From an uncultured virus (IMG/VR IMGVR_UViG_3300042868_009486) (lineage: Duplodnaviria; Heunggongvirae; Uroviricota; Caudoviricetes), in IMG/VR virus record IMGVR_UViG_3300042868_009486, positions 58,577 to 78,576 of that record: 20,000 nucleotides of DNA. One strand, 5' to 3'. The position numbers were made by a program, and so were the translations under genes. Each line of letters opens with the position of its first letter. Within the stretch, counting starts at the first letter, position 1. Positions 3 through 17,594 of the stretch are shown in pieces. Below the pieces are notes generated by a model. That model ran no database searches and was not told the origin of the DNA. It saw nothing but the letters and a program-made list of their open reading frames with translations.

Positions 3-242
3 AACGCAAATTTAGTTGTGACATCTGGAAATGATAAATTCCATCATGGATTAAATTATACTAGTCTACACTCTATGGGTAAGGCTTTAGATGTTACTTT
101 GGATGGGGGTTATCATCGCCAATTTATAAATCTATTGAATAATTATAAAGGTCAATATTCTGGATTCGGTTATATTGACGAATATAATGACCCCTCGGAT
201 GCTTCCACAGGTCCTCACTTCCATTTACAATACAAAGGATAA
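3..242 (+). CDS. 3' end (5'-truncated) of an M15/Hedgehog-DD-peptidase-fold Zn peptidase, likely a peptidoglycan hydrolase domain
   Basis: The frame is open from the window edge (NANLVVTSGND...), so GTG at 18 is probably not the real start. It contains S-L-H-S-M-G-K-A-L-D (SxHxxGxAxD) and a C-terminal H-F-H, the Zn-ligand pattern of M15 peptidases. Stop TAA at 240-242. Confidence 0.75.
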   Translation, partial: NANLVVTSGNDKFHHGLNYTSLHSMGKALDVTLDGGYHRQFINLLNNYKGQYSGFGYIDEYNDPSDASTGPHFHLQYKG

Positions 243-279: not shown

Positions 280-729
280 ATGAAAAATTTACAAGAGAGC
301 ATATCACGCATCAAAAATTTGATGAATATCTTAGAAGGATCAACGGAGTTTACAAAAGATCCGTATGGTGACTATGCGGACGACCAAGACCCAAGACAAA
401 CAGGACCATCACAATATGGTGTAAATCCAGAAATGGACAAAGAAATGGATAGTTATGATTCTGATGGGATGGGTGAAGGTGAAATCAAAGAAGAGGGTGA
501 AGAAACTGCAACTACAACAGATACTACCACAGATACCACTACTGATACCGCATCTTCAGGGGGAGGTACTGTAAGTAAGTGGGAAAGTGGAGTCAATAGA
601 TCTAAGGGAAACCCTGTCGGGAACACTGTTTGGGATAGTGGGAGAACTAAAGGTCCGACTTACCAAGGTACGGGTTATAAATGGACTTCAGGAAGAGGTT
701 ACGGACCAACAGGAAAATACGCATCATGA
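280..729 (+). CDS. Hypothetical 149-aa acidic, low-complexity protein with leader motif and three 17-aa W-x-S-G repeats; putative virion/internal head protein
   Basis: N-terminus MKNLQESISRIKNLMNILE, acidic middle with TTTD repeats, Trp codons at 580, 631 and 682 spaced exactly 51 nt. Preceded by TATTTAT. Confidence 0.8.
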   Translation: MKNLQESISRIKNLMNILEGSTEFTKDPYGDYADDQDPRQTGPSQYGVNPEMDKEMDSYDSDGMGEGEIKEEGEETATTTDTTTDTTTDTASSGGGTVSKWESGVNRSKGNPVGNTVWDSGRTKGPTYQGTGYKWTSGRGYGPTGKYAS

Positions 730-2852
730 TGGACAAAGATTTATCACTAAATATTGAACTACTTAGACAATTATCATTAATCAATTTTGATAGATCTAAG
801 ACTTTAATGGAACAAACCGTTAAAAGTGATAGATTAGGTTCAGAAGGGCAGTTCCAACCATTAATTGATACTAACAGACCATCTAAAGACACGACAGTTG
901 CATATAGAGTTTTTGAAAAAATTAAAAAAGAAATAAACAAAGATTCATACTGGGTTGAGTTTTGGAAATGGGGTACAGATGAGGACGGATTACTAGAATC
1001 ATTAAAAACCTTAAAAAACAAAAATCAGTATGACATACTTTTAAAATTAATACACAAAAATTTTCCCGAATCGGTAGGGTTAACAATAATTCAGTTTTTA
1101 CAACAACAAGAGTTTAGTGTTGCCCAAGACCCATTTTTTCAAGAACTTAATAGGGATGTTAATATGGCTTCTGAAATACAATATCAGAAAAATGACAAAT
1201 GGTTAATACAATATCAAAATATTCTTCAAAAATTTAATCCATATGAAAAATATTCTTATGAATCAGTTTTTGACCCATCCACAACAATAGCCAAACAAAT
1301 GATACCTCCATATACAAGAGAACTTTTACATGTTGTGTTACCCGTATCTGCGGTATTAGTTGCAATAGCGACGGGTGGTATTGGAACTAGTTTAGGTTAT
1401 GGATTAGTAGAGTTTTCACTCGAATTATTAGATGCTGCTATTTATGCCACGGTAGATGGTGATATATATATGGCAGGATTAGGTATGGTATTTGCTTTAG
1501 TGCCTGGTTTTACTCTTTTGGCAAAATACCTAAAGAATATGGGCATACCTAAGTTCAAAAAGTTTTTAGAAAAGTTAGGTTTATGGAAAGCAGGAAAGAT
1601 CGGTTCCGAATCGTTAAGTTCACAAGAAAGACAAGCTTTAAATGAATTTATTGAGAATCAAGACTATTATGTAAAATTGGCACTTAAAACTGCCATGAAA
1701 AATGTAGTAACCAAAACACTAATGACTCTAACTAAAAATGTAGAAAAGTTTTTAGAATTTTTACTATACTTAGTAAAAAAATCTTTGTTACCTGCAAATT
1801 TTTTAACACAAGCAGGTCTTGTAATGGGAGGTGGTTTTATGACATGGGACGCAATCGCAAGTGGTCTTGGAGTTTGTAGGTCGTTTAGTCTACAAGACCT
1901 TGAAGGTTCAGAAAATAAAATATTATCTCTCTTAGGTAAAATTGGCGGAGCAACACAAAGATTTGCTGAAAGATGCGATACAGAAGAGAAAGAAAAACTA
2001 ATTGATGACATAGAGAAACAACTTAGTACTTTAAAGGATATTGTTGTCATGTCATTGGAACAAATAATAAAATCTAATCTTACATTTAGTGAGAAAAATT
2101 TTAAGAATACTTTTATGTATGAAGTTGTTTTTATTCAGTATGTTCTAAAAAAACTAGGTATTAAAAGTGATCAAAAAGTTGCTAGCTATAGCTACGATAG
2201 TAAAAATATGATTTTGAACTTTCAGAATGCTGAAGAAATAAGTAGTGTCAAAGTGTATAGTGTTTACGGTAGAGAAATGGCATCAAAAAATAATGATGAA
2301 AAAACTAACATACTTGTTGACATGTCTAAATTACAAGAAGGGGTATATATAGTTAATATTACATTATCGGACGATACAAAACGAAACTTCAAAATATTTT
2401 CTTTGAAAAAGTCGTCTCCCGCATATAATTTGGGTGCCGTTAATTCATCATTCAAATGGGGATATTATGATAAATACACTGAAAATGTAATTAAAAAATA
2501 TCAAAAAAATAGAGGATTGAATCCTGACGGTGTTTGTGGAAATGATACATTAGAATCATTATTGGAAGACTCCAAAAAATTTGACAAAATAAATAATTAC
2601 GGTAATATTTCTTTAGATTCAAAATCAATAAAATTAGCTATAGAACAAGCGAGTTCTCAAATCGAAAAAAATCAACTTGAGTGGGAAAAGAAGAATGAAA
2701 GTCAAGTCACTAAAGAAGAAGTACAGGAGGAATTAAACAAACAAAAAGGAAAAAAAATAAAAGAAATTACCGATGATTTAAATGACCTCGAGTTTGATGA
2801 AAATATGTTAAATATGGTAAGTAAAAAATCAGACACCTTGATAAAGAACTGA
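726..2852 (+). CDS. Multidomain hypothetical protein: leader, annexin-like GTDE repeat, hydrophobic helices, peptidoglycan-binding domain with inserted T9SS-CTD-like domain
   Basis: Start probably ATG 726 or 729, overlapping the upstream TGA (ATGATG, 726-731), rather than 681. Motifs: WGTDEDGLLESL (GTDE 972-983); hydrophobic 1323-1523; YEVVFIQYVLKKLG (2118-2159) plus GYYDKYTENVIKKYQKNRGLNPDGVCGNDTL (2460-2552) as PG_binding_1 pattern; VKVYSVYG...VDMSKLQEGVYIVNI...FKI (2187-2411). Confidence 0.8.
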   Translation: MMDKDLSLNIELLRQLSLINFDRSKTLMEQTVKSDRLGSEGQFQPLIDTNRPSKDTTVAYRVFEKIKKEINKDSYWVEFWKWGTDEDGLLESLKTLKNKNQYDILLKLIHKNFPESVGLTIIQFLQQQEFSVAQDPFFQELNRDVNMASEIQYQKNDKWLIQYQNILQKFNPYEKYSYESVFDPSTTIAKQMIPPYTRELLHVVLPVSAVLVAIATGGIGTSLGYGLVEFSLELLDAAIYATVDGDIYMAGLGMVFALVPGFTLLAKYLKNMGIPKFKKFLEKLGLWKAGKIGSESLSSQERQALNEFIENQDYYVKLALKTAMKNVVTKTLMTLTKNVEKFLEFLLYLVKKSLLPANFLTQAGLVMGGGFMTWDAIASGLGVCRSFSLQDLEGSENKILSLLGKIGGATQRFAERCDTEEKEKLIDDIEKQLSTLKDIVVMSLEQIIKSNLTFSEKNFKNTFMYEVVFIQYVLKKLGIKSDQKVASYSYDSKNMILNFQNAEEISSVKVYSVYGREMASKNNDEKTNILVDMSKLQEGVYIVNITLSDDTKRNFKIFSLKKSSPAYNLGAVNSSFKWGYYDKYTENVIKKYQKNRGLNPDGVCGNDTLESLLEDSKKFDKINNYGNISLDSKSIKLAIEQASSQIEKNQLEWEKKNESQVTKEEVQEELNKQKGKKIKEITDDLNDLEFDENMLNMVSKKSDTLIKN

Positions 2853-2893: not shown

Positions 2894-5566
2894 ATGAAAA
2901 AAGAACTCATATCTGAAATATCGAGAATACAGGAACTCATGGGTGTTCAAAAACTAATTGTTGAACAAGGAACTTGGTTAAAAACTTTAGCAATCAAAGC
3001 ACCTAGATCGTTTGATAGTTTTATGACAATATTAAAGTCTGTAAGACAAAAGGGCGTTAAAATAACTGATTCGGAATTAGATGAAATACAACTCAAACTA
3101 ATTGAAGCTGGTGGTCTTACTGATGATGAAATTGAAAATCTGATGAAAGTTTTAAGAAATGACATCGAAGTGAGAAAAATACTTTCTACTACAGATGATT
3201 TTTTATCTGATTTGGCAAATAAATTCCCTGACGATGCCGTTCCGAATACATCATTGGCGGGACTTTCCAAAATTAAACTTAATCCCGATCAAATAAAGAA
3301 AATATCAGAAGATGCCGTAAAAGCATTACTTCGTAACAGAAACCATCCAATGAATCGTTTATATACGCTATTAGATGAAACTTTTTACGAGGCGATATAT
3401 GGAATATCCACATCAGGACAAAAGTTAAATAATGTTGACGAAGTATTTGATTTGATCGACGATAACATTAATTACATAATTAAACACAATGTAAAAACGG
3501 GAAAAATTGACCCGTCGATAGTGGATCCAAACTTGCTTTTTCAACAAACATCAGAATTCTTAAGAAATTTTTCAAAAACAAAACAGTTACTAGATGATAT
3601 GGTTGAAAACAAACAAGTATTCAACTATCCAAAAAGAACAAAAACTGTAAAATATGGGGACGCCCCTTTAGGTTTAAACGCTGATGAGGTTATTAAAAGC
3701 ATTGGTGGACAAGGAGTTGATGCAAAGTTTTTAAGCAAATACGAAGAATTATTACAAAAAAATCAGGATGAATTAAACGACCAACAAAAACAATTTATAA
3801 AAGATGTTGATGATTTCAAAAAGGGGATTGATGTAAATCTTGATGACTCCCTTGAATTTGTAATTAGATCAGAAAGATTGGAAGAATTAGGAAACACATT
3901 TAAAATTTTGAGTGCGAAAAATGTAAATTTTGATTCATGGTATGTTAAATATTTTAGACCATTATTTAGATGGTGGGTTGCAAATTTTGAAGTATTAGTT
4001 GATGCAGTAATCAATAGTACCTTGAAACCTAAATTTGAAACATATGCTAAAGAATTTGAAAAGGCGTTCGGAGAGGGATTGGCAGCATATAGAAATGTTA
4101 GTGAAAACCCAACAAAGTTAGATCCATATTATCTTTTTAAAATAAAAGATAGATTACTAAAACTACGATCTGAAATTATTTTGGATCCGGCAAAATATAG
4201 TCGAGAACTTTTTGTAGAAGATTTGTGGAAGGCTTTCAAAGAAAACGCGGTTAAGAAACTTACAACCCAACAAGATATAGAGTCATTCCAAAGTTTTTGT
4301 AAAGTGGTTGATGAACAACCTCCGGGTTTTAGATCAGCATCTATTAGAGACCTTTTTAATAAAGCATCTGTCGATGAGGGTGGTATGGACTTTAAAAAAA
4401 TGTCAGAAGAAACTAGTAAAAAATTCGAAGACATGTCCAAAACCGTAAAAAATAATGAAGTTACCACAGTTATTAAGGACAAAATGGGTGAGTTTATTAT
4501 GAACAGTAAAGTACTGTCATGGTTTACGACAGGATCTTGGAAGACACCTAGAGAGGTTGAGAGATTATTGGCAACAAAGGGATATAGAGGAAGGACGATT
4601 TATTACAACACATTAAAAACTATTGGTTTAAGATATATTTTAGTTCCGTTTGTTGCCGGATTACTCTCTGCTATTTTTGACGCATTCCAAAAGGCGAGAA
4701 ATGTAGTTGGGATGGACACCAAGGATAAAAATTTATTTGAGGCTTACTGGTTACCCGAATATATCGATTTTATATCAGGTAAGTCAATTGTAGAATTTGG
4801 GTTTGAGCAATATATGGGTAAAATACCTGGAGGTAATGAATGGACCGACGTACTACAAATCGCAGTTCCAGGATTTGCGGACAACACGATAATTCAACTT
4901 TATAACAGGCTTAGTTATTATAAAGACAACCCTGGTGAGTATGACAATATTGTGGATGCAACTAAAGCGGCAGTAGGAGAGAAATCTAATCAAGAAATAA
5001 TTAAGAAAAATGATAAGATAATTGAAAAGACTAACAATCGTTTGGAGGAGAGAGTTGAAGAAGTTGGTTATGATCAAATAATTAAGACTCAACAAATTGC
5101 TCTACCGATTTTTAAAAATCGAGTAGACGACTTAGTAAAAGAGGGAATTATCGATAAAGAACAAGGAGAATTTGTAAAAAACAATATGAAATATGTTCCA
5201 AAGTTACCCAAGGATTACTTAAATATGGTAAAACAAAAACAAAAAGAAATGGTTGCCGCTGGTAATGCGGGTGAATTGTTGACAAAAATGAACACAATAT
5301 TTGGTGTGTCAAATATTGATATAACATCAGTATCAATCCCACGAGGGGTGGATTTAGGGTCTATAGTCTTAAATGGTGATAATGTACAATACTTAGTAGT
5401 TCTACAAAAAAGAGATATCTACTCATTACCAGAAAGTGTTTATAATAGTTTCCCTAAAGGACAAGAAATTATGTGGGTTACTCCTGAATTTAATAATTTA
5501 GACTTGAATACGGAAAGAACTTACAACACAATAAAAGACTTTATAGATACATATTACAAAAAATAA
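2894..5566 (+). CDS. Large (890 aa) likely alpha-helical hypothetical protein with leader motif and one hydrophobic segment; putative internal virion/ejection protein
   Basis: Long ORF. N-terminus MKKELISEISRIQELMGVQKLIVEQ resembles that of ORF 280. Hydrophobic stretch IGLRYILVPFVAGLLSAIFDAF near 4622-4687. No recognisable catalytic motif. Confidence 0.8.
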   Translation: MKKELISEISRIQELMGVQKLIVEQGTWLKTLAIKAPRSFDSFMTILKSVRQKGVKITDSELDEIQLKLIEAGGLTDDEIENLMKVLRNDIEVRKILSTTDDFLSDLANKFPDDAVPNTSLAGLSKIKLNPDQIKKISEDAVKALLRNRNHPMNRLYTLLDETFYEAIYGISTSGQKLNNVDEVFDLIDDNINYIIKHNVKTGKIDPSIVDPNLLFQQTSEFLRNFSKTKQLLDDMVENKQVFNYPKRTKTVKYGDAPLGLNADEVIKSIGGQGVDAKFLSKYEELLQKNQDELNDQQKQFIKDVDDFKKGIDVNLDDSLEFVIRSERLEELGNTFKILSAKNVNFDSWYVKYFRPLFRWWVANFEVLVDAVINSTLKPKFETYAKEFEKAFGEGLAAYRNVSENPTKLDPYYLFKIKDRLLKLRSEIILDPAKYSRELFVEDLWKAFKENAVKKLTTQQDIESFQSFCKVVDEQPPGFRSASIRDLFNKASVDEGGMDFKKMSEETSKKFEDMSKTVKNNEVTTVIKDKMGEFIMNSKVLSWFTTGSWKTPREVERLLATKGYRGRTIYYNTLKTIGLRYILVPFVAGLLSAIFDAFQKARNVVGMDTKDKNLFEAYWLPEYIDFISGKSIVEFGFEQYMGKIPGGNEWTDVLQIAVPGFADNTIIQLYNRLSYYKDNPGEYDNIVDATKAAVGEKSNQEIIKKNDKIIEKTNNRLEERVEEVGYDQIIKTQQIALPIFKNRVDDLVKEGIIDKEQGEFVKNNMKYVPKLPKDYLNMVKQKQKEMVAAGNAGELLTKMNTIFGVSNIDITSVSIPRGVDLGSIVLNGDNVQYLVVLQKRDIYSLPESVYNSFPKGQEIMWVTPEFNNLDLNTERTYNTIKDFIDTYYKK

Positions 5567-5570
5567 TAAC

Positions 5571-6440
5571 ATGGAAACAGGAAAAAGATTCGACGAAGAT
5601 AATTTTAAACACTGGAAGGACACTTTCAAATTTAAATCGTATGATGAAGAAAAAGGTGAATACAAAGATGTGAAAATTAACATGGAAGATGTGATGGATA
5701 GAATAAACCATTACAGAAAAAAATATGATGAGGACGACTCATTTGTAAGAGCAGTGGTTGACACGCATGAAGATGTTGTTAAAATTATGTTTACAAAGGA
5801 TTTAGCACATTTGACCGAATCTGTCGAACTTGTTGGTTTAGTTAAGGTTTTACAATCTTTAAGAGAATCAAGAGGAGAAATGGAAATTTGGTCTGTTTCA
5901 AGACCTGCCGACGGTAACTGGTTTTTAGTAAAAGGATCATTTAACAAAAAAGAACTTTCAAATATGGATTTAAAAAAAATCGAGAGAAAGTCAAAAGAGG
6001 AAGATGAACCAAGAGAAAAACCTGAAGACGGTTTAAAAAAAAAAGAACAAAAAGCAATAGAAACACTAAAAGTGAATGAACTTAATGGTGTTAATAGGTT
6101 ACCGATTAAAATCAAAGGTAAGGTAAAAGAAAAAATGGAAAATGGGTGGACTACAATACCCCCATTTCAGTTCTTTAAAGACTTTTATACTGAAAGTGAA
6201 ATAAACTCAGCTTTCAATGACAAAATCAAAATTTACAAACTGAAACCAACCTCTTTATTTTTTGATGAATTGAAATCTAATTCCCCAAAAATTAGAGTTA
6301 ATAGAGGTTTTTGTCGATCATTATACTTGGTTAAAAATGACAATAGTATACAAGAGGACCACCAAAAAGTAGTAGACCATATTCTATCTGAGTGTGACAG
6401 AAAATTTGACGGTAAGTTCGGAATTCGTTACAAGTTTTAA
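5571..6440 (+). CDS. Hypothetical 289-aa charged (Lys/Glu-rich) protein
   Basis: ORF starts 4 nt after the previous stop, on the same strand. No family recognised. Confidence 0.75.
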   Translation: METGKRFDEDNFKHWKDTFKFKSYDEEKGEYKDVKINMEDVMDRINHYRKKYDEDDSFVRAVVDTHEDVVKIMFTKDLAHLTESVELVGLVKVLQSLRESRGEMEIWSVSRPADGNWFLVKGSFNKKELSNMDLKKIERKSKEEDEPREKPEDGLKKKEQKAIETLKVNELNGVNRLPIKIKGKVKEKMENGWTTIPPFQFFKDFYTESEINSAFNDKIKIYKLKPTSLFFDELKSNSPKIRVNRGFCRSLYLVKNDNSIQEDHQKVVDHILSECDRKFDGKFGIRYKF

Positions 6441-6463: not shown

Positions 6464-8164
6464 ATGGATTTTGAAACCGTCATAATTAAAAGAACATTAG
6501 ATCAGAACAGATCCAAATGGAAAGGATGTGGAGACCCAAGTCCTTTTGTAAATTTATATTCTTTAGGTCCACTATCAACACCTCCCGAATTTGGTTATGC
6601 AGAATTTGATGGTGTAATTGATGGTAAAAATATTAAGGTAAAGGCTTGTTTCGATAGTTATAAATTGATTCGTACAATGGAATCGGAAACTGGGGACAGA
6701 GGAACCTTCAATGGAGAATATTACAGTGACTCTACACCACTATCGACGCCAAGACCATTTAAAGGAGACAACTCAAAAGCAAATAAATTTCAGTATGGAA
6801 CTTTAACGGATTCAAAAGATTATAATTTTTTTACTAATAATTGGAAATACGCTGGTGAATTTATAGATGGTAAAATAGGTGGTAAAGGTACGATCATATT
6901 TTTAGACAGTAAAGACACCTATAAGGGCGAGTTCAAAAACGGAATGATTGATGGCGTCGGGACATATAAATCACTATCTACAGGTAAAGAAATAAAAGGA
7001 ACATTTAAACAAAATGATATTGTAATAGGTGTTACCCTATCTGATGGAACCGTAATTAAAAATATTTTTGATTCTGAAATAAGTGTAAATCCTGTAAAAA
7101 ACGATAGTTTGACTTTTAATGTAAGAAAGTCCGCAAATTTAAAAGGAGTAACAAATTTCAAATCCACAATTGTTTATAAAGAAAAACCCGAGGATAGGAA
7201 GTCAAATAACCTTTCGAGAACATTTGAAGGAACACTACCAAATGTAAGTGTGAAATTAGTTAGAAAAGATAATAAAGACGATGTTAAAATAGGTAAAAGT
7301 GACAAAAATGGTGATTTTTTAATTGAGGATATAAATTATGGTGTTTATGTTTTAACGGCAACTCTATCTCATGGTGATAGTCGTTACTTTTTTTTAAAAA
7401 TAGATGAATTAGATATTGATGAAGATAACGAAATAGTTAATTTGATTTTATCACCTAATAAGCAACTCAAAAAGTCAGAAACTGAAACTGTAGAATTTAA
7501 TAAATCTGATCTTTCTAAAAAATCATTCAATACTGATTGGTATCGTAATATGTTTGTACCATCCGATAATAGAGGAGGGTATAAAGATAAATCCACACCA
7601 AAAACTTTAGAAGAAGATTGCCTTCAAAAACTTTCAGAATATGGCGAAGATTTGAAAGTGATGCACCAAACTGGTAAATTCCCAACAAACCTTAGTTTAT
7701 TAGATACTGAAAAAGAAATAAATTTTTCAGATCTAAAAAATAATGAACAATTAAAATCTGTTAAAAATCAATTACAATTTTGTTGGAACAAATATAAGGA
7801 TGTGAAAGGTTTTAGAAGGAAAATCGGCGAAAAAAACATACTACTAATGAGAAATCCTGTAGGACAATTTTTAGATTTCCAATTAATTTTACCTGAACAT
7901 TACAATAAAGAAGATATTTATAATAAAAAAGTTATGGAACTTTCTAAAACCATTTCTAAAGTTGTGTTAGAGCACAAACAAAGAAAACAAGATTCATCGA
8001 ATGAATCAAAAATCATTCGCAATCGTTTGAGTTTTATTGTTGAAAATAGTCACTCAAAAACAATCAAAAAATCACTTATTGAAGAAAAGAGTAAATTGAT
8101 CGATTTTGGTTATAATAAAACTATAGTTAATGAAGAATTTCACGAAATTATGACAAGACTATAA
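6464..8164 (+). CDS. MORN-repeat and CarboxypepD_reg-like (prealbumin-like fold) domain protein with a C-terminal helical module
   Basis: YAGEFIDGKIGGKGTIIF / YKGEFKNGMIDGVGTYKS / IKGTFKQND (about 6845-7018) fit the MORN YxGxFxxGxxxGxG pattern. LPNVSVKL...KSDKNGDFLIEDINYGVYVLTAT (about 7229-7370) fits the CarboxypepD_reg pattern. Confidence 0.75.
   Translation: MDFETVIIKRTLDQNRSKWKGCGDPSPFVNLYSLGPLSTPPEFGYAEFDGVIDGKNIKVKACFDSYKLIRTMESETGDRGTFNGEYYSDSTPLSTPRPFKGDNSKANKFQYGTLTDSKDYNFFTNNWKYAGEFIDGKIGGKGTIIFLDSKDTYKGEFKNGMIDGVGTYKSLSTGKEIKGTFKQNDIVIGVTLSDGTVIKNIFDSEISVNPVKNDSLTFNVRKSANLKGVTNFKSTIVYKEKPEDRKSNNLSRTFEGTLPNVSVKLVRKDNKDDVKIGKSDKNGDFLIEDINYGVYVLTATLSHGDSRYFFLKIDELDIDEDNEIVNLILSPNKQLKKSETETVEFNKSDLSKKSFNTDWYRNMFVPSDNRGGYKDKSTPKTLEEDCLQKLSEYGEDLKVMHQTGKFPTNLSLLDTEKEINFSDLKNNEQLKSVKNQLQFCWNKYKDVKGFRRKIGEKNILLMRNPVGQFLDFQLILPEHYNKEDIYNKKVMELSKTISKVVLEHKQRKQDSSNESKIIRNRLSFIVENSHSKTIKKSLIEEKSKLIDFGYNKTIVNEEFHEIMTRL
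7915..7921 (+). promoter_or_regulatory. Intragenic TATTTAT motif upstream of in-frame ATG 7934
   Basis: GATATTTATAATAAAAAAGTTATG. ATG 7934 is codon 491 of ORF 6464..8164. Confidence 0.5.
7934..8164 (+). CDS. Possible nested in-frame 76-aa product (MELSKTISKVVLEH...IMTRL)
   Basis: Has its own TATTTAT motif and an A-rich spacer, as at bona fide gene starts. The sequence is rich in (V/I/L)xE motifs like the neighbouring leaders. Confidence 0.45.
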   Translation: MELSKTISKVVLEHKQRKQDSSNESKIIRNRLSFIVENSHSKTIKKSLIEEKSKLIDFGYNKTIVNEEFHEIMTRL

Positions 8165-9497: not shown

Positions 9498-12400
9498 ATG
9501 TCTGGATTATATAAAAACCCAATAACCCCAATAAATGTACTAGGTGCAAGTTCAGTATCTAGAACAAGTACCTATGGAACAAACTTCAGTATTTTAGGAG
9601 TTGGTGGGTACATGGAGGTATACAATATAAGTGACTTATTTTTCACCGTACCATCAGGTTCAACAGGATATATAGAAATATCAGGTAATACTATCCCTAT
9701 TCAATTACAAAAAGGAACAGGGTCTATATTTTCACCTGATGTATTAACACTTGGATCAGATAACATCTCTTCAGGAAGAAGAAGATTAGGTATGTTGGCT
9801 TATGTTCAAGAAACACAAGAAGTATATCAATTTCAAATTCCAAACTACCAAACATTATGGAATAATGCCACAGGGGCAACAGGTCCTGGTGGATCCACTG
9901 TAGTTGTTTCAGAATTTGGTACAACTGTAAAATCTAATAGTGCCGCGGGTATTGCTTTTATAAATGCTTGGACAGGAAATACTGTTGAAGGTTATAATGG
10001 TGGAGGTAGTAATTCGACATGGAGAAAATTTACAACAGGTGGTCAAGGAAGTGGTATTTCTGCTTTTACATATGGTAATAATACATTTACGATATTTGAT
10101 GTGACAGGCGGGACTTACTCTACAACTGTAAATGATTTTACAGGTTTGACTGTTAATGGTAGTTTTTCTGCAACAACTTATTTAGGTTTACCTCCTGAAA
10201 TAGTTGTCACAGGTGGTACCTATGACCCAAATAATGGTACTGCGACTTTTACAAATAATACGGGAGGAACATTCAATGTAACAGGGTTTTTAACTGGTTT
10301 TACAGACATATATGTGACCGGAGGAACATACTATTCAGCGTCAAGTACAATTGAATTATTTAGAACTGACAATGGAGTTGTTTCTATTACAGGAATAACT
10401 GCTAACGGGTCAAGTGGGACATCAGGAACAAATGGTACTGATGGTACTAGTGGTATTTCGGGAGTTAATGGTACGAGTGGAACTTCGGGGACTAATGGGT
10501 CTTCGGGGTCCGATGGTACATCAGGTACAAATGGGACTTCAGGAAGTAGTGGTACCAATGGTACTAACGGGTCTTCAGGTACAAATGGAACAAGTGGTGT
10601 TGATGGGTCTAGTGGTACAGACGGATCATCAGGAACTAACGGCACAAATGGGTCTTCAGGAACAAATGGAACGAATGGTACTAGCGGTACTAATGGAACT
10701 AACGGAACATCTGGAACAAATGGTACTTCAGGATCTGATGGTACTTCCGGTACAAACGGTACATCTGGTACTAATGGGACTAGTGGTACTGACGGTACCT
10801 CAGGTACAAACGGAACTAACGGATCTAACGGATCTTCAGGAACAAACGGTACTGATGGTACTTCAGGTACAAACGGAACAAGCGGAAGTAGCGGAACAAA
10901 CGGTACTGATGGTACTAGTGGAACAGATGGGTCTAGTGGTACAGATGGTACGAGTGGTAATGATGGAACTAATGGGACTTCAGGAACAAACGGAACCAAT
11001 GGTACAAGCGGCACTGATGGAACTAACGGATCATCGGGCACAAATGGAACTAATGGTTCATCAGGAACTAACGGTACAAATGGGTCTTCAGGTACGAATG
11101 GAACTAGCGGAACTAGCGGAACAAACGGTACCGATGGATCGTCAGGTACAAACGGAACTAGTGGTTTATCGGGTGTAGATGGTACAGACGGAACTTCGGG
11201 AACAAATGGTACAGATGGTTCTAGTGGAACAAATGGTACTAGCGGAAGCTCAGGCACAAATGGAACTAACGGTACATCAGGAACAAATGGTTCAAGTGGT
11301 ACAAACGGAACTTCGGGAACTAATGGTACAAACGGAACATCAGGTACAAACGGAACGAATGGTACTAGCGGAACGAATGGAACAAATGGTTCAAGTGGAA
11401 CTAACGGAACAGATGGAACTTCAGGGACTAGCGGAACATCAGGCACTAATGGTACAGATGGAACTTCAGGGACTAGCGGAACAGATGGGTCTAGCGGATC
11501 TTCAGGTACGGATGGAACTAGCGGAACTTCAGGTACGGATGGAACTAGCGGAACTTCAGGTTCTTCAGGGACAGACGGAACATCAGGTTCTAGCGGTACC
11601 GATGGAACGAGCGGTACAGACGGGACTAGCGGATCTTCAGGAACTAATGGAACTAACGGTACATCAGGTTCAAGTGGTACGAATGGCACTAGTGGGTCAA
11701 GTGGAACCTCAGGTACTGATGGGACAAATGGGTCTTCAGGCACAGATGGAACATCTGGTTCTAGCGGAACAGATGGGACTAGTGGAACAAGCGGTACGGA
11801 TGGTACTAACGGAACTTCGGGTTCAAGCGGAACTGATGGAACTAGTGGTTCATCAGGAACAAATGGTACGGATGGCACTAGTGGTTCTTCAGGTACTAAC
11901 GGAACAGACGGGACAAGTGGAACAGATGGTACTTCAGGAACAGATGGTACTTCAGGTACGGATGGAACTTCAGGAACAGATGGTACTAATGGGACGAGCG
12001 GATCTTCAGGTACAGATGGTACTAGTGGAACAAGTGGATCTTCAGGAACTGACGGAACTAGCGGGACATCAGGTTCTAGCGGGACATCAGGTTCTAGCGG
12101 AACAAGTGGGTCCTCAGGAACAGACGGCACATCAGGAACTTCAGGGTCGAGCGGTACTGACGGTACAAGTGGAACTTCAGGTTCTAGCGGAACAGACGGT
12201 ACATCAGGGACATCTGGTTCAAGCGGCACAAGCGGTTCTTCAGGTACTGACGGAACAAGTGGAACATCAGGTTCTTCAGGATCAAGCGGTACCGATGGCA
12301 CAAGTGGAACATCAGGTTCTAGTGGTACGGATGGTACTAGCGGAACAAGTGGATCCTCAGGAACAGACGGCACATCAGGAACTTCAGGGTCGAGCGGTAC

Positions 12401-15400
12401 CGACGGAACTTCTGGAACTAATGGTACTAGCGGGACCGATGGAACATCGGGAAGTAATGGTACAAATGGGACATCAGGGACTAATGGTACTAGCGGAACT
12501 AATGGAACTAACGGAACTTCAGGTACAAACGGTACTAGTGGTACAAATGGAACATCAGGTACAAATGGGACAAACGGGACATCAGGTACTAACGGAACGA
12601 ATGGTACTAGCGGAACAAACGGAACATCCGGAACCAATGGAACCTCAGGAACAAATGGTACTAACGGTACATCAGGAACCAATGGAACATCAGGAACAAA
12701 TGGTACTTCAGGTACTAACGGTACGAATGGAACATCAGGTACAAACGGTACTAATGGAACTTCAGGTACGAACGGCACAAGTGGAACTAACGGTACAAAC
12801 GGTACTTCAGGGACTAATGGTACTAGTGGAACAAATGGGACTTCTGGTACAAATGGAACCAATGGTACAAGTGGCACCAACGGAACTTCGGGTACTAACG
12901 GAACAAATGGAACTAACGGTACTTCAGGTACAAACGGAACATCAGGTACAAATGGTACAAGCGGGACTAATGGTACAAATGGTACAAGCGGGACTAATGG
13001 TACAAATGGGACTAATGGTGCGAATGGAACTTCAGGAACTAATGGTACGGATGGTACTAGCGGAACAGATGGAACTAGCGGAACAAATGGTACGGATGGT
13101 ACGGATGGTACTTCAGGTACAAATGGTACAGATGGAACTTCAGGAACCAACGGTACAGACGGAACATCAGGTACTAATGGAACGGATGGTTCAAGCGGAA
13201 CAGATGGTACTTCAGGTACTAACGGAACGGATGGTACAAGTGGAACAAACGGAACGGATGGAACTTCAGGGACAGATGGAACTTCAGGTACGGATGGAAC
13301 GTCAGGAACGGATGGAACGTCAGGAACGAATGGTACAAACGGAACTAATGGTACCGATGGAACTAGCGGTACGGATGGAAGTAGTGGTACAAATGGTACG
13401 AATGGAACTAGCGGTACGAATGGTACCAACGGAACTTCAGGTACAAATGGGACTAATGGAACTTCAGGAACTAACGGAACAGATGGTACTAGCGGTACTG
13501 ACGGAACTAATGGAACGTCGGGAACTGACGGAACTTCAGGAACAAACGGAACAGATGGTACTAGTGGTAGCGACGGAACCAGCGGAACTAATGGTACGGA
13601 TGGGTCAAGTGGAACAAATGGTACTTCAGGGACTAATGGTACAGACGGAACATCAGGAACTAATGGAACAGATGGGTCAAGTGGTACTAATGGAACTTCA
13701 GGAACCAACGGAACAGATGGAACTTCAGGTACTAACGGTACGAGCGGAACCAATGGAACAAATGGTACTTCGGGTACTAACGGTACGAGTGGAACGAATG
13801 GTACAAATGGAACTAGTGGAACGAACGGAACTTCAGGTACTAACGGAACAAATGGTACAAGTGGTACTAACGGAACGAACGGAACCTCAGGAACTAATGG
13901 TACTAGCGGAACAAATGGAACCAATGGTTCAAGTGGAACAAATGGTACGAGCGGAACGAACGGAACCAATGGAACATCGGGTACTAATGGATCAAGCGGT
14001 ACAAATGGGACTTCAGGAACGAATGGAACTAACGGTACTAGCGGAACAAATGGAACTAGCGGTACTAGCGGAACAAATGGAACTAGCGGAACAAATGGAA
14101 CATCAGGTACGAACGGGACCAATGGTACAAATGGAACTAGCGGAACTAACGGTACAAATGGTACTTCAGGGACTAATGGAACTTCAGGGACTAATGGTAC
14201 AAACGGAACTTCAGGGACTAATGGTACGAACGGAACTAGCGGGACAAATGGGACTTCAGGAAGTAGTGGTGCGGGGGTTGCTAACTATTATGCCCAATAT
14301 AGTAGTAGTTTAACACAACAAGTTTCAGGGGCAAATACCCCTACGGTTGTAACATACAATACGGTTGAAATTGAGAATGGTATTTCGGTTGTGAGCGGAA
14401 GTAGGGTAACTGTACAATACTCAGGTATATATGAATTCAGTTTTTCCCCCCAAGTTGAAAAAAATCAAGGGGGTGCTGCTGTAGATGTGGATTTCTTTGT
14501 TAGAAAAAATGGTACTAATATAATAAGAACTGATAGTATTTTAGGATTAGTGTCTAATAGCGTCAAACAATTACCATTTGTTTCGATCGTGGCTGATTTA
14601 CAACAAAATGATTACTTGGAATTAGTTTTTGCTAGTACTTCAGAAGATGTCCAATTGACAGCGGAGGCGGCTCAAACATCACCTTACATAGCACCTGCGG
14701 CACCATCAATTATAGTAACTATCAAGAACATCGGAGTTGCTGCGGTTGCTTACACATCAACTTCAGGTACTAATGGTACAAATGGATCTTCAGGAACTAG
14801 TGGAACTAATGGAACTAATGGAACTAGTGGAACTAATGGAACTAGTGGTACAAACGGAACTTCTGGTACTAACGGGACTAATGGTACTTCAGGTACTAAC
14901 GGGACTTCTGGAACAAATGGTACTAACGGCACATCAGGTACAAATGGAACTAACGGAACTAGTGGAACGAATGGGACTAACGGCACCAATGGAACATCGG
15001 GAACTAATGGTACGAGTGGAACTAATGGTACTTCAGGTACAAACGGAACTTCAGGAACAAATGGTACCAATGGGACAAACGGAACTTCAGGAACCAACGG
15101 AACAAACGGCACTTCAGGTACAAATGGAACAAATGGTACAAGTGGAACAAATGGTACCTCAGGTACGAATGGGACAAATGGAACTAGCGGTACAAATGGT
15201 ACAAATGGAACTTCAGGAACTAACGGAACTTCAGGTACAAACGGCACTAGCGGAACAAATGGAACAAATGGAACCTCAGGTACAAATGGAACATCAGGAA
15301 CTAATGGTACTAATGGTACTTCGGGAACTAATGGTACTAGTGGAACGAATGGAACATCGGGAACAAACGGAACTAATGGTACTAGTGGAACGAATGGTAC

Positions 15401-17594
15401 TAACGGAACTAGCGGAACAAATGGTACTTCAGGAACTAACGGTACTAACGGCACAAGTGGAACAAATGGTACTAATGGAACATCGGGAACAAACGGAACT
15501 AACGGAACGTCAGGAACTAACGGTACTAATGGAACTTCAGGAACAAACGGAACTTCAGGTACTAATGGAACTAGCGGGACAAATGGTACAAACGGTACAA
15601 GTGGGACTAATGGTACAAATGGAACATCAGGTACAAACGGAACATCAGGTACTAATGGAACATCAGGTACTAATGGAACCAATGGAACTTCGGGGACTAA
15701 CGGAACAAGCGGTACGAATGGTACTAGCGGAACTAACGGTACGAATGGAACTTCAGGAACTAATGGTACATCAGGAACGAACGGAACGTCAGGAACTAAC
15801 GGAACTAATGGTACTTCAGGTACTAACGGAACTTCAGGAACAAATGGTACTAATGGAACTTCAGGAACAAATGGTACTAATGGAACATCAGGTACTAATG
15901 GAACTTCAGGTACAAATGGAACTAATGGTACTTCAGGTACAAATGGAACATCAGGAACAAACGGAACATCGGGTACTAACGGTACTTCAGGAACTAATGG
16001 AACAAACGGAACATCAGGTACAAACGGAACGAATGGGACTTCAGGAACTAATGGTACTAGTGGAACAAACGGAACATCGGGAACGAACGGTACTAACGGT
16101 ACTTCAGGAACTAACGGAACAAATGGTTCAAGTGGAACCAATGGAACTTCAGGGACGAATGGTACAAACGGTACATCAGGTACAAACGGAACTTCAGGGA
16201 CTAATGGATCGTCAGGTACAAATGGTACAAACGGAACGTCAGGGACTAATGGAACAAATGGTACATCAGGAACGAATGGAACTAACGGAACATCAGGAAC
16301 TAATGGTACTAGCGGAACGAATGGGACAAACGGTACCTCAGGTACCAATGGAACTTCAGGGACGAATGGTACAAACGGAACTAGCGGAACGAATGGAACT
16401 TCAGGAACTAATGGAACAAACGGAACATCAGGTACAAACGGAACTAGCGGAACGAATGGAACTAGCGGAACGAATGGAACTAACGGAACCTCAGGGACTA
16501 ATGGAACTAGTGGTACCAACGGTACTAACGGAACATCAGGAACAAACGGTACTAATGGTACTTCGGGAACAAATGGTACATCAGGTACAAACGGTACTTC
16601 TGGAACAAATGGTACAAATGGAACCTCAGGGACTAATGGGACAAGTGGAACCAACGGTACAAACGGTACTTCAGGAACAAACGGAACAAATGGAACCAAC
16701 GGAACATCAGGTACAAACGGTACTTCTGGAACAAATGGTACAAATGGTACTTCAGGTACTAACGGGACTAATGGGACGAACGGAACTAGTGGGACAAATG
16801 GGACTAGCGGTACCAATGGTACGAATGGTACGAGTGGAACTAACGGAACAAATGGAACTAGCGGTACGAATGGTACGAGTGGAACTAACGGAACAAATGG
16901 AACTAGCGGTACGAATGGTACGAGTGGAACTAACGGAACTAGCGGTACGAATGGTACTTCGGGAACAAACGGGACTAACGGGACATCGGGAACTAATGGT
17001 ACATCAGGTACTAACGGTACGAATGGTACTTCAGGTACAAACGGAACTTCAGGGACTAATGGAACATCAGGAACTAATGGTACTTCTGGAACAAATGGAA
17101 CTAGCGGGACTAACGGTACATCAGGAACTAACGGAACGAATGGAACAAGTGGTACTACACCTATAGTTCCTGGGGCTGACAACGAGGTACTAACTTCGGA
17201 TGGGTCTGGTAATATTGTTGCTGAATCTGGATTTACATATAACGGATCTGATGGTACTTTAACTCTTAATTCTACACACAGTTTAGTTAATACAACAAGT
17301 TTGACGAATATCTCTTCTGGACAAGTTGTTGAATCTTACGGTACTGATATTGGGTGTGGTGCTATATTTGAATATTGTGTTACTGAAAATGGTGGAGCAA
17401 AAAGGATAGGTCAAGTGTACGCAGTATGGAATAACACGAATGGGGATGGTACCGATGTATCAAGTCCTGATTTGGGTGGTTCCACGGCAAATTTTGTTTG
17501 GAAAGTTCAGGTTTCTGGTGGTAGTGTCGAATTAGCTTGCGCTATAGGTGGAGGAACATGGACTATACTTGTTTCAACAAGAATTATATTCTAA
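9498..17594 (+). CDS. Giant (2698 aa) collagen-like Gly-X-Y fibre protein with internal C1q/BclA-CTD-like domain; putative phage tail/head fibre
   Basis: N-terminal globular region (RRLGMLAYV...YQ) and VTGGTY beta-repeats (about 10050-10400), Gly-X-Y block 10407-14270, C1q-like domain about 14280-14733, Gly-X-Y block 14766-17159, then a C-terminal beta domain (FEYCV...RIGQVYAVW...WTILVSTRIIF). Confidence 0.9.
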   Translation: MSGLYKNPITPINVLGASSVSRTSTYGTNFSILGVGGYMEVYNISDLFFTVPSGSTGYIEISGNTIPIQLQKGTGSIFSPDVLTLGSDNISSGRRRLGMLAYVQETQEVYQFQIPNYQTLWNNATGATGPGGSTVVVSEFGTTVKSNSAAGIAFINAWTGNTVEGYNGGGSNSTWRKFTTGGQGSGISAFTYGNNTFTIFDVTGGTYSTTVNDFTGLTVNGSFSATTYLGLPPEIVVTGGTYDPNNGTATFTNNTGGTFNVTGFLTGFTDIYVTGGTYYSASSTIELFRTDNGVVSITGITANGSSGTSGTNGTDGTSGISGVNGTSGTSGTNGSSGSDGTSGTNGTSGSSGTNGTNGSSGTNGTSGVDGSSGTDGSSGTNGTNGSSGTNGTNGTSGTNGTNGTSGTNGTSGSDGTSGTNGTSGTNGTSGTDGTSGTNGTNGSNGSSGTNGTDGTSGTNGTSGSSGTNGTDGTSGTDGSSGTDGTSGNDGTNGTSGTNGTNGTSGTDGTNGSSGTNGTNGSSGTNGTNGSSGTNGTSGTSGTNGTDGSSGTNGTSGLSGVDGTDGTSGTNGTDGSSGTNGTSGSSGTNGTNGTSGTNGSSGTNGTSGTNGTNGTSGTNGTNGTSGTNGTNGSSGTNGTDGTSGTSGTSGTNGTDGTSGTSGTDGSSGSSGTDGTSGTSGTDGTSGTSGSSGTDGTSGSSGTDGTSGTDGTSGSSGTNGTNGTSGSSGTNGTSGSSGTSGTDGTNGSSGTDGTSGSSGTDGTSGTSGTDGTNGTSGSSGTDGTSGSSGTNGTDGTSGSSGTNGTDGTSGTDGTSGTDGTSGTDGTSGTDGTNGTSGSSGTDGTSGTSGSSGTDGTSGTSGSSGTSGSSGTSGSSGTDGTSGTSGSSGTDGTSGTSGSSGTDGTSGTSGSSGTSGSSGTDGTSGTSGSSGSSGTDGTSGTSGSSGTDGTSGTSGSSGTDGTSGTSGSSGTDGTSGTNGTSGTDGTSGSNGTNGTSGTNGTSGTNGTNGTSGTNGTSGTNGTSGTNGTNGTSGTNGTNGTSGTNGTSGTNGTSGTNGTNGTSGTNGTSGTNGTSGTNGTNGTSGTNGTNGTSGTNGTSGTNGTNGTSGTNGTSGTNGTSGTNGTNGTSGTNGTSGTNGTNGTNGTSGTNGTSGTNGTSGTNGTNGTSGTNGTNGTNGANGTSGTNGTDGTSGTDGTSGTNGTDGTDGTSGTNGTDGTSGTNGTDGTSGTNGTDGSSGTDGTSGTNGTDGTSGTNGTDGTSGTDGTSGTDGTSGTDGTSGTNGTNGTNGTDGTSGTDGSSGTNGTNGTSGTNGTNGTSGTNGTNGTSGTNGTDGTSGTDGTNGTSGTDGTSGTNGTDGTSGSDGTSGTNGTDGSSGTNGTSGTNGTDGTSGTNGTDGSSGTNGTSGTNGTDGTSGTNGTSGTNGTNGTSGTNGTSGTNGTNGTSGTNGTSGTNGTNGTSGTNGTNGTSGTNGTSGTNGTNGSSGTNGTSGTNGTNGTSGTNGSSGTNGTSGTNGTNGTSGTNGTSGTSGTNGTSGTNGTSGTNGTNGTNGTSGTNGTNGTSGTNGTSGTNGTNGTSGTNGTNGTSGTNGTSGSSGAGVANYYAQYSSSLTQQVSGANTPTVVTYNTVEIENGISVVSGSRVTVQYSGIYEFSFSPQVEKNQGGAAVDVDFFVRKNGTNIIRTDSILGLVSNSVKQLPFVSIVADLQQNDYLELVFASTSEDVQLTAEAAQTSPYIAPAAPSIIVTIKNIGVAAVAYTSTSGTNGTNGSSGTSGTNGTNGTSGTNGTSGTNGTSGTNGTNGTSGTNGTSGTNGTNGTSGTNGTNGTSGTNGTNGTNGTSGTNGTSGTNGTSGTNGTSGTNGTNGTNGTSGTNGTNGTSGTNGTNGTSGTNGTSGTNGTNGTSGTNGTNGTSGTNGTSGTNGTSGTNGTNGTSGTNGTSGTNGTNGTSGTNGTSGTNGTSGTNGTNGTSGTNGTNGTSGTNGTSGTNGTNGTSGTNGTNGTSGTNGTNGTSGTNGTNGTSGTNGTSGTNGTSGTNGTNGTSGTNGTNGTSGTNGTSGTNGTSGTNGTNGTSGTNGTSGTNGTSGTNGTNGTSGTNGTSGTNGTSGTNGTNGTSGTNGTSGTNGTNGTSGTNGTNGTSGTNGTSGTNGTNGTSGTNGTSGTNGTSGTNGTSGTNGTNGTSGTNGTNGTSGTNGTSGTNGTSGTNGTNGTSGTNGTNGSSGTNGTSGTNGTNGTSGTNGTSGTNGSSGTNGTNGTSGTNGTNGTSGTNGTNGTSGTNGTSGTNGTNGTSGTNGTSGTNGTNGTSGTNGTSGTNGTNGTSGTNGTSGTNGTSGTNGTNGTSGTNGTSGTNGTNGTSGTNGTNGTSGTNGTSGTNGTSGTNGTNGTSGTNGTSGTNGTNGTSGTNGTNGTNGTSGTNGTSGTNGTNGTSGTNGTNGTNGTSGTNGTSGTNGTNGTSGTNGTNGTSGTNGTSGTNGTNGTSGTNGTSGTNGTSGTNGTSGTNGTNGTSGTNGTSGTNGTNGTSGTNGTSGTNGTSGTNGTSGTNGTSGTNGTSGTNGTNGTSGTTPIVPGADNEVLTSDGSGNIVAESGFTYNGSDGTLTLNSTHSLVNTTSLTNISSGQVVESYGTDIGCGAIFEYCVTENGGAKRIGQVYAVWNNTNGDGTDVSSPDLGGSTANFVWKVQVSGGSVELACAIGGGTWTILVSTRIIF
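10407..14270 (+). repeat. Gly-X-Y block 1 (about 429 triplets: GTN, GTS, GTD, GSS)
   Basis: First Gly codon at 10407 and last at 14268, 3861 nt apart = 429 x 9. No Pro in the translation. Confidence 0.97.
14280..14733 (+). other. C1q/TNF-like (BclA C-terminal-like) trimerisation domain inside the fibre CDS
   Basis: TVVTYNTVEIENGI...RVTVQYSGIYEFSFSPQV...VDFFVRKNG...IVADLQQNDYLELVF matches the gC1q pattern (F...GxYxFxx...LxKNG...LxLxxGDxVxL). Confidence 0.7.
14766..17159 (+). repeat. Gly-X-Y block 2 (about 266 triplets, almost only GTN/GTS)
   Basis: First Gly codon at 14766 and last at 17151, 2385 nt apart = 265 x 9. Confidence 0.97.
16818..16939 (+). repeat. Perfect 45-bp tandem repeat, about 2.7 copies
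   Basis: GGTACGAATGGTACGAGTGGAACTAACGGAACAAATGGAACTAGC at 16818 and 16863, with a partial copy at 16908. Confidence 0.9.

Follow-up and report, generated by a model that had tools for sequence, protein, structure and literature searches.

A homologue of type IX secretion system sorting domains nested in the peptidoglycan-binding domain of a jumbo phage protein: a candidate substrate mimic

Type IX secretion system (T9SS) sorting domains are defined as C-terminal export tags of Bacteroidota. Excerpts of Lauber et al. (2024; PMC10994853) state that the conserved motifs of type A C-terminal domains (CTDs) specify the fold and not contacts with the translocon, with one exception: a lysine near the C-terminus (Lys1110 in RemZ) that is nearly invariant, matters for function, and makes contact with PorV. 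Here, we describe what sequence profiles and a predicted structure identify as a homologue of such a domain inside a phage protein, inserted into its peptidoglycan-binding domain (PGBD). The protein, of 708 amino acids (aa), is encoded in a 20,000-nucleotide stretch of DNA from an uncultured virus (the window), which makes up the last 20 kb (positions 58,577 to 78,576) of the 78,576-base IMG/VR record IMGVR_UViG_3300042868_009486 (CheckV completeness, 27%). We refer to the virus as a jumbo phage because proteins identical to the 708-aa protein occur on contigs of up to 241 kb and a relative occurs on a 281-kb, 96%-complete record, that of a second jumbo phage (G001).

Compared with the type A CTDs of RemA, RemZ, NucA, RgpB, and mirolase, the insert is alike in profile score, in seven of its strands, in a motif B/D/E-like pattern, in a near-invariant lysine, and in its predicted seat on PorV. 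It differs in being internal and nested, in having an eighth strand that returns the chain, in lacking the YPNP motif, a free C-terminus, and a Sec signal peptide, and in residing on a phage protein with predicted membrane anchors; moreover, a profile built from such inserts misses a canonical CTD. The surrounding PGBD shares the three-helix bundle and the DG..G..T motif with the PGBDs of phiKZ gp144, the AP3 endolysin, SleB, and SleC (1.6 Å to SleB and AP3). Unlike these endolysin and spore lytic domains, it is broken after helix 1 by a whole folded domain and sits on a 700-aa membrane protein. A weaker likeness (Z 7.0-7.4) is to 4g54 (EpsAB/GspAB) from the type II secretion system, where an inner-membrane protein carries a periplasmic PG_binding_1 domain beside a beta-rich domain; there, however, the domains stand in series and are not nested, and no sequence relation extends outside the PGBD. 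Full-text literature searches found no paper on a CTD inside a PGBD or on a phage CTD mimic.

The gene and its PGBD module are laid out as follows, in window coordinates:

726..2852, + strand: gene of the 708-aa protein, listed as an open reading frame (ORF) at 681..2852 (723-aa frame)
2052..2159, + strand: N-terminal part of PG_binding_1, including helix 1 (2118-2159); known PGBD chains align from model residue 19 on
2160..2450, + strand: 97-residue insert in the loop between helix 1 and helix 2; beta-sandwich core at 2181-2435 with eight predicted strands
2391..2393, + strand: AAA codon of Lys571, at the position of the near-invariant lysine of type A CTDs
2451..2564, + strand: C-terminal part of PG_binding_1, helices 2-3 with the DG..G..T motif, placed by Pfam and structure alignment

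The translation of positions 2118-2564 starts YEVVFIQYVLKKLGI and ends WGYYDKYTENVIKKYQKNRGLNPDGVCGNDTLESLL, lies wholly within ORF 681..2852, and contains the peptides quoted in a first-pass annotation of the window, each in its place. When the whole protein was compared with Pfam, PF01471 (PG_binding_1) matched at 44 bits (cut-off 23) over residues 594-627, corresponding to profile positions 24-57 of 57 and thus to helices 2-3 only. With the 149-aa piece encoded by 2118-2564 as the query, HMMER recovered PF01471 as two stretches (47.7 bits). The sequence between them matched PF18962 (Por_Secre_tail, cut-off 27): the score was 27.3 bits with the whole protein as the query and rose to 32.3 bits (E 1.3e-7) when 2187-2411 was scanned alone. 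NCBIfam TIGR04183 gave 27.2 to 32.5 bits against a cut-off of 23 (E 6.2e-8 on the insert alone), so that both profiles the first-pass annotation had proposed for this stretch score above their curated cut-offs (32.3 and 32.5 bits). The DUF3244 profile PF11589 fell below its cut-off on the insert (12.8 bits versus 25, E 0.12). As had been proposed, the insert splits PG_binding_1 after helix 1; its length, however, is 97 residues rather than about 75 when measured against an insert-free homologue (G493 to F591 in the 723-aa frame, which is used for residue numbers unless another form is named).

The position of the domain agrees with the description of it as internal and without YPNP or signal peptide. 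The CTD-like part spans approximately residues 501-585 of 723, lies within the PGBD, and has about 140-150 residues after it. The YPNP motif is absent from the insert. The N-terminus of the protein is hydrophilic, and a hydropathy scan, the only basis for this statement, placed the sole strongly hydrophobic stretches at residues 197-266 of the 707-aa form. The insert is therefore not a sorting signal in the defining sense, since both a C-terminal position and a signal peptide were looked for and neither was found. A genuine export signal, with the CTD-like domain driving T9SS export of the C-terminal part of the protein, would fit the above-threshold profile scores and the CTD fold, but it is very improbable for a domain that is internal, has ~150 residues after it, is nested in another folded domain, and belongs to a protein with hydrophobic anchor helices and no signal peptide.

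We modeled residues 440-650 with AlphaFold2 from an alignment of 45 family sequences (mean pLDDT 90.5, pTM 0.71). The model consists, in order, of a helix, eight beta-strands, and two helices. It was aligned to 48,161 PDB representatives (VIA), and all fold matches reported here have this predicted model as the query. Known PGBD chains align across the split, led by the SleB N-domain (6tci_A; Z 10.0, rmsd 1.6 Å, 73/73 residues, model range 19-193) and including CtpB, SleC, phiKZ gp144 (Z 8.8), and the AP3 endolysin (rmsd 1.6 Å). Model residues 60-136, which form the insert, align with the RemA CTD of a translocon complex (8gl6_D; Z 9.0, rmsd 2.3, 75/76 residues) and also with 8gl8_D, 8glj_D, 8glk_D, the mirolase CTD 8qb1_A, RgpB, 5ag9_B, and PorZ. 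Foldseek likewise ranked 8gl6_D first (E 3.8e-4, TM by target 0.75), with 8gl8_D, 8qb1, 8glk_D, 7pq4, and 5ag8 among its other top matches. The first seven of the eight insert strands match T9SS type A CTDs. The predicted structure is thus the one that the first-pass annotation had anticipated: a beta-sandwich budding from a reassembled three-helix PGBD, with both a CTD-like insert and an assembled PGBD. A PDB profile search with the family alignment returned PGBD matches only, and fold rows from the ESM Atlas reached only TM 0.20-0.25, with no usable match.

The same fold is found in DUF3244 proteins of Bacteroides (BT_1867, BT_3571, and BVU_0276), which are no known T9SS signals and match as closely as CTDs (4g5a_B, Z 9.8; 3sd2_A, Z 9.0; a third, Z 8.7), whereas their sequence match to the insert is not significant. 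CTD and DUF3244 cannot be told apart by fold alone but can be by sequence profile (E 1.3e-7 versus 0.12). Profile score and predicted fold together identify the insert as a homologue of type A CTDs that sits within a PGBD, as had been claimed for it.

To place the insert in its family, we collected homologues. A word-based search found 13 relatives of the 708-aa protein. Among 1.84 billion representatives searched with a profile, 132 proteins reached E <= 1e-30; about half of them are full-length family members and the others multi-PGBD proteins. PF01471 was detected in 63 of 65 family members scanned. In 51 of these 63 the match begins at profile position 20-24; therefore, the domain is split at the same place. 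A tblastn search of 50,697 GenBank phage records with the 708-aa protein gave no match, and scans of viral_contigs with single relatives (P0011, P0038, and P0014) gave no relatives. We then aligned 75 members (representatives at 50% identity), cut out the stretch corresponding to G493-F591, and assigned the inserts, which range from 7 to 157 residues, to classes by eye:

Short insert of 7-22 residues with a contiguous PGBD: 5 members (P0016, P0025, P0041, P0043, and P0062)
CTD-like sandwich of 87-107 residues: 30 members
Longer variants that may contain the CTD-like sandwich: 5 members
'YDPTGGIG...LPATGN' type: 10 members
Cys-rich '...HPEC.QY' type ('...KC...HPEC.QY'): 13 members
Other inserts: 12 members

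When inserts were scanned alone against Pfam, PF18962 was the top match at E <= 0.1 in 14 of 24 CTD-like inserts (above the cut-off in 3 of 24); there was no PF18962 match at this threshold in the remaining 10 CTD-like inserts or in any of seven inserts of other classes. Non-CTD inserts, including those of 130-157 residues (P0012-P0015, P0018-P0022, P0014/P0019/P0026, and others), had no Pfam match at E <= 0.1. Comparison of homologues with and without the insert, which the first-pass annotation had suggested, was informative in both directions: the insert-free P0016, P0025, and P0041 have a contiguous PGBD, and the same loop carries unrelated inserts in others. These insert-free homologues, along with the structure alignment that runs across the split, also answer what the proposed PF01471 scan of an insert-free sequence had been meant to show. 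The family thus has an insertion hot spot in the loop behind helix 1, which the CTD-like sandwich occupies more often than any other type of insert.

These data bear on two alternatives. The first is that the similarity to CTDs arose by chance or is an annotation artefact, as the whole-protein PF18962 score, only 0.3 bits above the cut-off, might suggest. This is hardly credible, and we rejected it: the insert alone has E-values of 1.3e-7 (Pfam) and 6.2e-8 (NCBIfam), the same top match recurs in 14 of 24 independent representatives, and the top structural matches are solved CTDs. The second is that the sandwich, although of CTD descent, today acts only as a spacer or a domain for general adhesion on the PGBD loop, with no T9SS partner, in which case it would resemble the Ig-like decorations common on phage proteins. 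We regard this as the main rival to the reading that we favor below, and as only slightly less likely. The spread of occupants at the hot spot (5 short, 30-35 CTD-like, 10 'YDPTGGIG', 13 Cys-rich, and 12 other) speaks for it, as do the 10 of 24 CTD-like inserts without a PF18962 match and the equal match to DUF3244 folds; further evidence on both sides follows below.

The remainder of the record points to a host that possesses a T9SS. Two canonical cargos are encoded in it:

Record C1:15566-17131: type A T9SS cargo of 521 aa, signal-peptide-like at its N-terminus and ending in a YPNP-type CTD (46.5 bits)
Record C1:50521-52755: type B T9SS cargo of 744 aa, with a hydrophobic N-terminus, a PKD-like domain, and a CHU_C CTD (47.4 bits)

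Among 231 candidate stretches from GTDB genomes, 189 were relatives of the type A cargo. The best of these are 63-72% identical, and nearly all are titled as metagenome-assembled genomes (MAGs) of Crocinitomicaceae, Lishizhenia, Flavobacteriales, or Bacteroidota, with a few carrying titles of other taxa. This supports a Bacteroidota host, as the first-pass annotation had proposed; on our reading it is a freshwater member of the Flavobacteriales, probably of the family Crocinitomicaceae. The genome comparison covered one other phage genome, that of G001. Its family member is 31% identical and has a 'YDPTGGIG' insert without a PF18962 match, and G001 also encodes a CHU_C cargo (52 bits); judging from this cargo, G001 probably also infects a T9SS host.

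The first-pass annotation had further proposed that a secretion signal of the host was captured and repurposed. The CTD homology is in keeping with this idea, but a recent capture is not. When longer proteins were searched by word matching with the insert as the sole query, all six matches were family members, with no cellular CTD. The 26 aligned CTD-like inserts have a median pairwise identity of 22%. When the six-frame ORFs of the record were all searched with a profile of these 26 inserts, the canonical CTD of the phage was not recovered (1.9 bits, E 4.7), and BLASTP aligned this CTD to the insert with 28% identity over only 40 residues. Given the lack of a close cellular relative, the low identity, and the missed canonical CTD, sequence comparison indicates that the capture, if any, is ancient, and at a loop that is a general hot spot it is not a one-off. 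The same profile matched a 57-aa open frame at record C1:9726-9896 (E 5.9e-4, 14.4 bits), probably by chance.

Conservation reaches at least 90% at just two positions of the insert: N538 (24/26) and K571 (25/26, with a lysine one column away in the 26th). K571 is model residue 132, and model residue 136, the last aligned, pairs with residue 1114 of the RemZ CTD chain. By range arithmetic on the structure alignment, and assuming no gap in the final strand, K571 would therefore pair with RemZ Lys1110, both lying four residues before the end of the CTD or its structural equivalent. The retention of K571 across diverged inserts is the best sequence argument that a CTD-type function, beyond CTD ancestry, may have been retained. 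For a module without a T9SS partner, the failure of the insert profile to find the phage's own CTD is as expected, and so is a set of CTD motifs that mainly specify the fold, as stated in the excerpts of PMC10994853; the persistence of Lys571 in 25-26 of 26 inserts is not, since it lies outside the fold-specifying motifs.

To predict whether the insert could dock on a T9SS component, we modeled it with PorV, which scores above its family cut-off in all three Crocinitomicaceae MAGs. Residues 23-427 of PorV from one of these (MAG G002) were co-folded with the PGBD and insert (residues 38-197 of the modeled piece, with its own alignment). The co-fold scored 0.81, compared with 0.00 for the best of three controls. 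Of 157 solved complexes, 116 reach the mark that it passes, as do 2 of 215 mismatched pairs; these counts serve only as a rough guide because the co-fold used its own alignment. At least 86% of contacts agreed between runs, and the partner pLDDT was no lower than 79. On the partner, every confident contact falls in the insert and none in the PGBD; these contacts involve the YSVYGREMAS hairpin, KLQEGV, N569, K571, F573, and the eighth strand. K571 contacts PorV residue 130 and N569 contacts PorV residue 100. By spacing alone, these PorV residues resemble the Asn87/Phe115 pair in the excerpts of PMC10994853. The docking on T9SS components suggested in the first-pass annotation thus gains support in silico, although the pass may merely mirror the solved CTD-PorV complexes. 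An interface confined to the insert argues against a sandwich that has no T9SS partner.

Whether the module could reach PorV depends on the remainder of the protein. ATG 726 overlaps the stop codon of the upstream ORF as ATGA, and homologues are 707 or 708 aa long; therefore, the true start is probably ATG 726 or 729. The other features of the gene are as follows:

729..815, + strand: conserved N-terminal leader helix, ending in an invariant L-x-E-Q (residues 42-45 of the 723-aa frame)
876..1328, + strand: all-helical N-terminal domain (pLDDT 80-96 in most blocks, 43 in one)
1317..1394, + strand: hydrophobic segment 1, predicted transmembrane helix (Kyte-Doolittle 2.09; residues ~197-222 of the 707-aa form)
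1464..1526, + strand: hydrophobic segment 2, predicted transmembrane helix (Kyte-Doolittle 1.91; residues ~246-266 of the 707-aa form)
1782..1880, + strand: conserved Gly-rich segment, moderately hydrophobic (residues ~352-384; family consensus GGxFxTWDxIA)
2619..2846, + strand: charged C-terminal helices, predicted to be coiled-coil-like (low to moderate model confidence)

An acidic loop separates the two hydrophobic segments, and a Lys-rich stretch follows the second. The Gly-rich segment is, from its hydropathy, a possible third membrane helix that would place the C-terminal module in the periplasm. We infer an N-in, three-helix topology that would put the PGBD module in the periplasm, the compartment in which a PGBD has to work. 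This likely location is also where CTDs are read, which again fits poorly with a generic spacer. The full-length AlphaFold2 model has a mean pLDDT of 70.5, with the hydrophobic region poorly modeled, and a fold search of BFVD with it returned nothing at E <= 0.001. No catalytic domain was recognizable in the ~700-aa protein by Pfam or PDB profile search. The N-terminal helical domain (residues 50-200 of the 707-aa form) has a weak giardin/annexin-like fold match (2ii2_A, Z 7.6; 3chj_A, Z 6.9). It contains a 'WGTDE' motif, and its fold match is an alpha-giardin, which is of annexin type; a Pfam scan of the N-terminal 200 residues gave no match, leaving these two Z scores as the basis for the annexin idea.

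Our best reading, which we hold tentatively and at somewhat less than an even chance, is that the protein is a CTD mimic, tethered to the wall in the periplasm, which engages the T9SS through PorV and SprA. The gene product would be a membrane-anchored envelope protein of the jumbo phage, with two to three hydrophobic helices in the inner membrane and a PGBD that fixes the module to murein in the periplasm. Because the PGBD would hold it there, the sandwich would be displayed in the compartment where real CTDs are recognized. Because it is internal, membrane-tethered, and without a signal peptide, it could not act as an export signal; it would be a pseudo-substrate at the CTD-binding site of PorV and the SprA translocon, joining the inner membrane, the wall, and the outer-membrane T9SS. 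As a result, secretion and gliding might be jammed, other phages might be excluded, or the site might be used for envelope crossing or lysis. A more specific version, which we consider rather unlikely, is a non-secretable decoy, fixed to the wall by its PGBD, that would pass from the periplasm into the SprA-PorV translocon and either stall it or take it over. Such a decoy could shut down secretion and gliding or could exclude rival phages that use T9SS or gliding proteins as receptors; excerpts of two reports link phage resistance in Flavobacterium to gliding and T9SS genes (10.1101/2020.10.02.323337; PMC9804748). If the protein is injected, the largest known outer-membrane pore could form part of the way in or out. 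On this view, the remaining insert types at the loop would serve as different 'hooks' for the host envelope.

Several observations weigh against a CTD mimic. The domain has neither a free C-terminus nor a YPNP start, DUF3244 proteins match its fold equally, and the insert profile misses the canonical CTD of the same phage. The loop holds unrelated inserts or none in other family members. G001 combines a non-CTD insert with a type B cargo; therefore, the core function of the family does not need the CTD-like module. The topology is based on a simple hydropathy scan of a region that is poorly modeled. Finally, CTD-PorV complexes have been solved (8gl6, 8gl8, 8glj, and 8glk), so that the co-fold pass may reflect likeness or memory, and none of the three co-fold controls was CTD-like.

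The neighborhood of the gene contains the following features:

3..242, + strand: 3' end of a 445-aa gene (record C1:57481-58818) with a contiguous PGBD (52.4 bits)
280..729, + strand: upstream 149-aa ORF with an N-terminal leader of the same kind, translationally coupled to the 708-aa gene (ATGA)
2894..5566, + strand: 890-aa gene downstream, with a syntenic counterpart in the second jumbo phage (31% identical in the N-terminal 254 residues)
5571..6440, + strand: 289-aa gene, 73% identical in the second jumbo phage (L006:12799-13659), in the same conserved block
6464-8164: 566-aa protein with a MORN repeat match (32 bits) and a weak head-tail adaptor PHROG match at its C-terminus
9498-17594: 2698-aa collagen-repeat ORF (PF01391, 912 bits)
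17704-20000: second collagen-repeat ORF, running off the end of the window

The order shared by the two jumbo phages is a PGBD-bearing protein (39% identity), the 708-aa family, a ~900-aa protein (31%), the 289-aa protein (73%), and collagen-like fiber genes. A separate PGBD-GH19 endolysin is encoded elsewhere in the record. This conserved order with a PGBD neighbor and fiber genes, together with the separate endolysin, favors but does not prove an envelope-directed gene block that is possibly virion-associated. The 289-aa protein appears unusually constrained, at 73% identity beside neighbors at only 31-39%. Read by eye, the 445-aa upstream protein has a C-terminal end like a LAS-type metallopeptidase and an N-terminus like an SGNH hydrolase. 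The G+C content is 29-36% in the first 10 kb of the window and 42-48% in the remainder, which consists of the collagen-like fiber genes; the collagen repeat also leaves long ORFs open in other frames on both strands.

The leader of the 708-aa protein is recognizable in other proteins of the phage. In the family alignment Q30, L31, L33, E44, and Q45 are invariant, and L17 and E28 are nearly invariant in 56 sequences. Related amphipathic leaders ('MK.LIR.ILKE', 'MKIIITE', and 'MNLQE.I.RIK.LM') stand at the start of at least 21 of the 95 ORFs of the record, for example at record C1 10257, 11218, 19856-23349, 26372, and 30766 and at window 280-340 and 2894-2970. The pattern [LI]xE occurs in residues 4-30 of 59 of the 95 ORFs, compared with 176 of 700 interior windows. 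Capsid targeting leaders of the T4 type are cut by the prohead protease after (L/I)xE. The shared leader could be such a head-targeting, protease-site leader, or it could be a paralogous N-terminal module. In excerpts of PMC3012670, the capsid targeting sequence is the only conserved part of the internal proteins of T4.

The leader and the gene block together raise the possibility of a virion-borne ejection protein, which would be packed into the head by its leader, cut after L-x-E, and injected, and would then insert into the inner membrane, bind murein, and place its CTD-like domain on PorV/SprA as an entry path. We consider this improbable. The invariant L-x-E-Q of the family, the leaders shared across the record, the sharing of nothing but a targeting sequence by the T4 proteins, the collagen-like tail-fiber genes adjoining the block in two jumbo phages, and the PGBD of the upstream neighbor alongside a separate endolysin all favor it. 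However, a leader on so many small ORFs makes head-targeting of all of them unlikely, PHROGs gave PGBD-level endolysin matches only, and no prohead protease turned up in the 27%-complete record, in which no search aimed at one was made.

A CTD homologue placed internally, in the wall-binding domain of a membrane-tethered phage protein, would be the first candidate viral mimic of a T9SS sorting signal and a possible natural inhibitor or probe of the SprA-PorV translocon. Whatever its function, a small three-helix PGBD tolerates whole-domain insertions at one loop, with at least four unrelated types of insert, which is useful for domain-insertion engineering and for the annotation of jumbo phages of aquatic Flavobacteriales.

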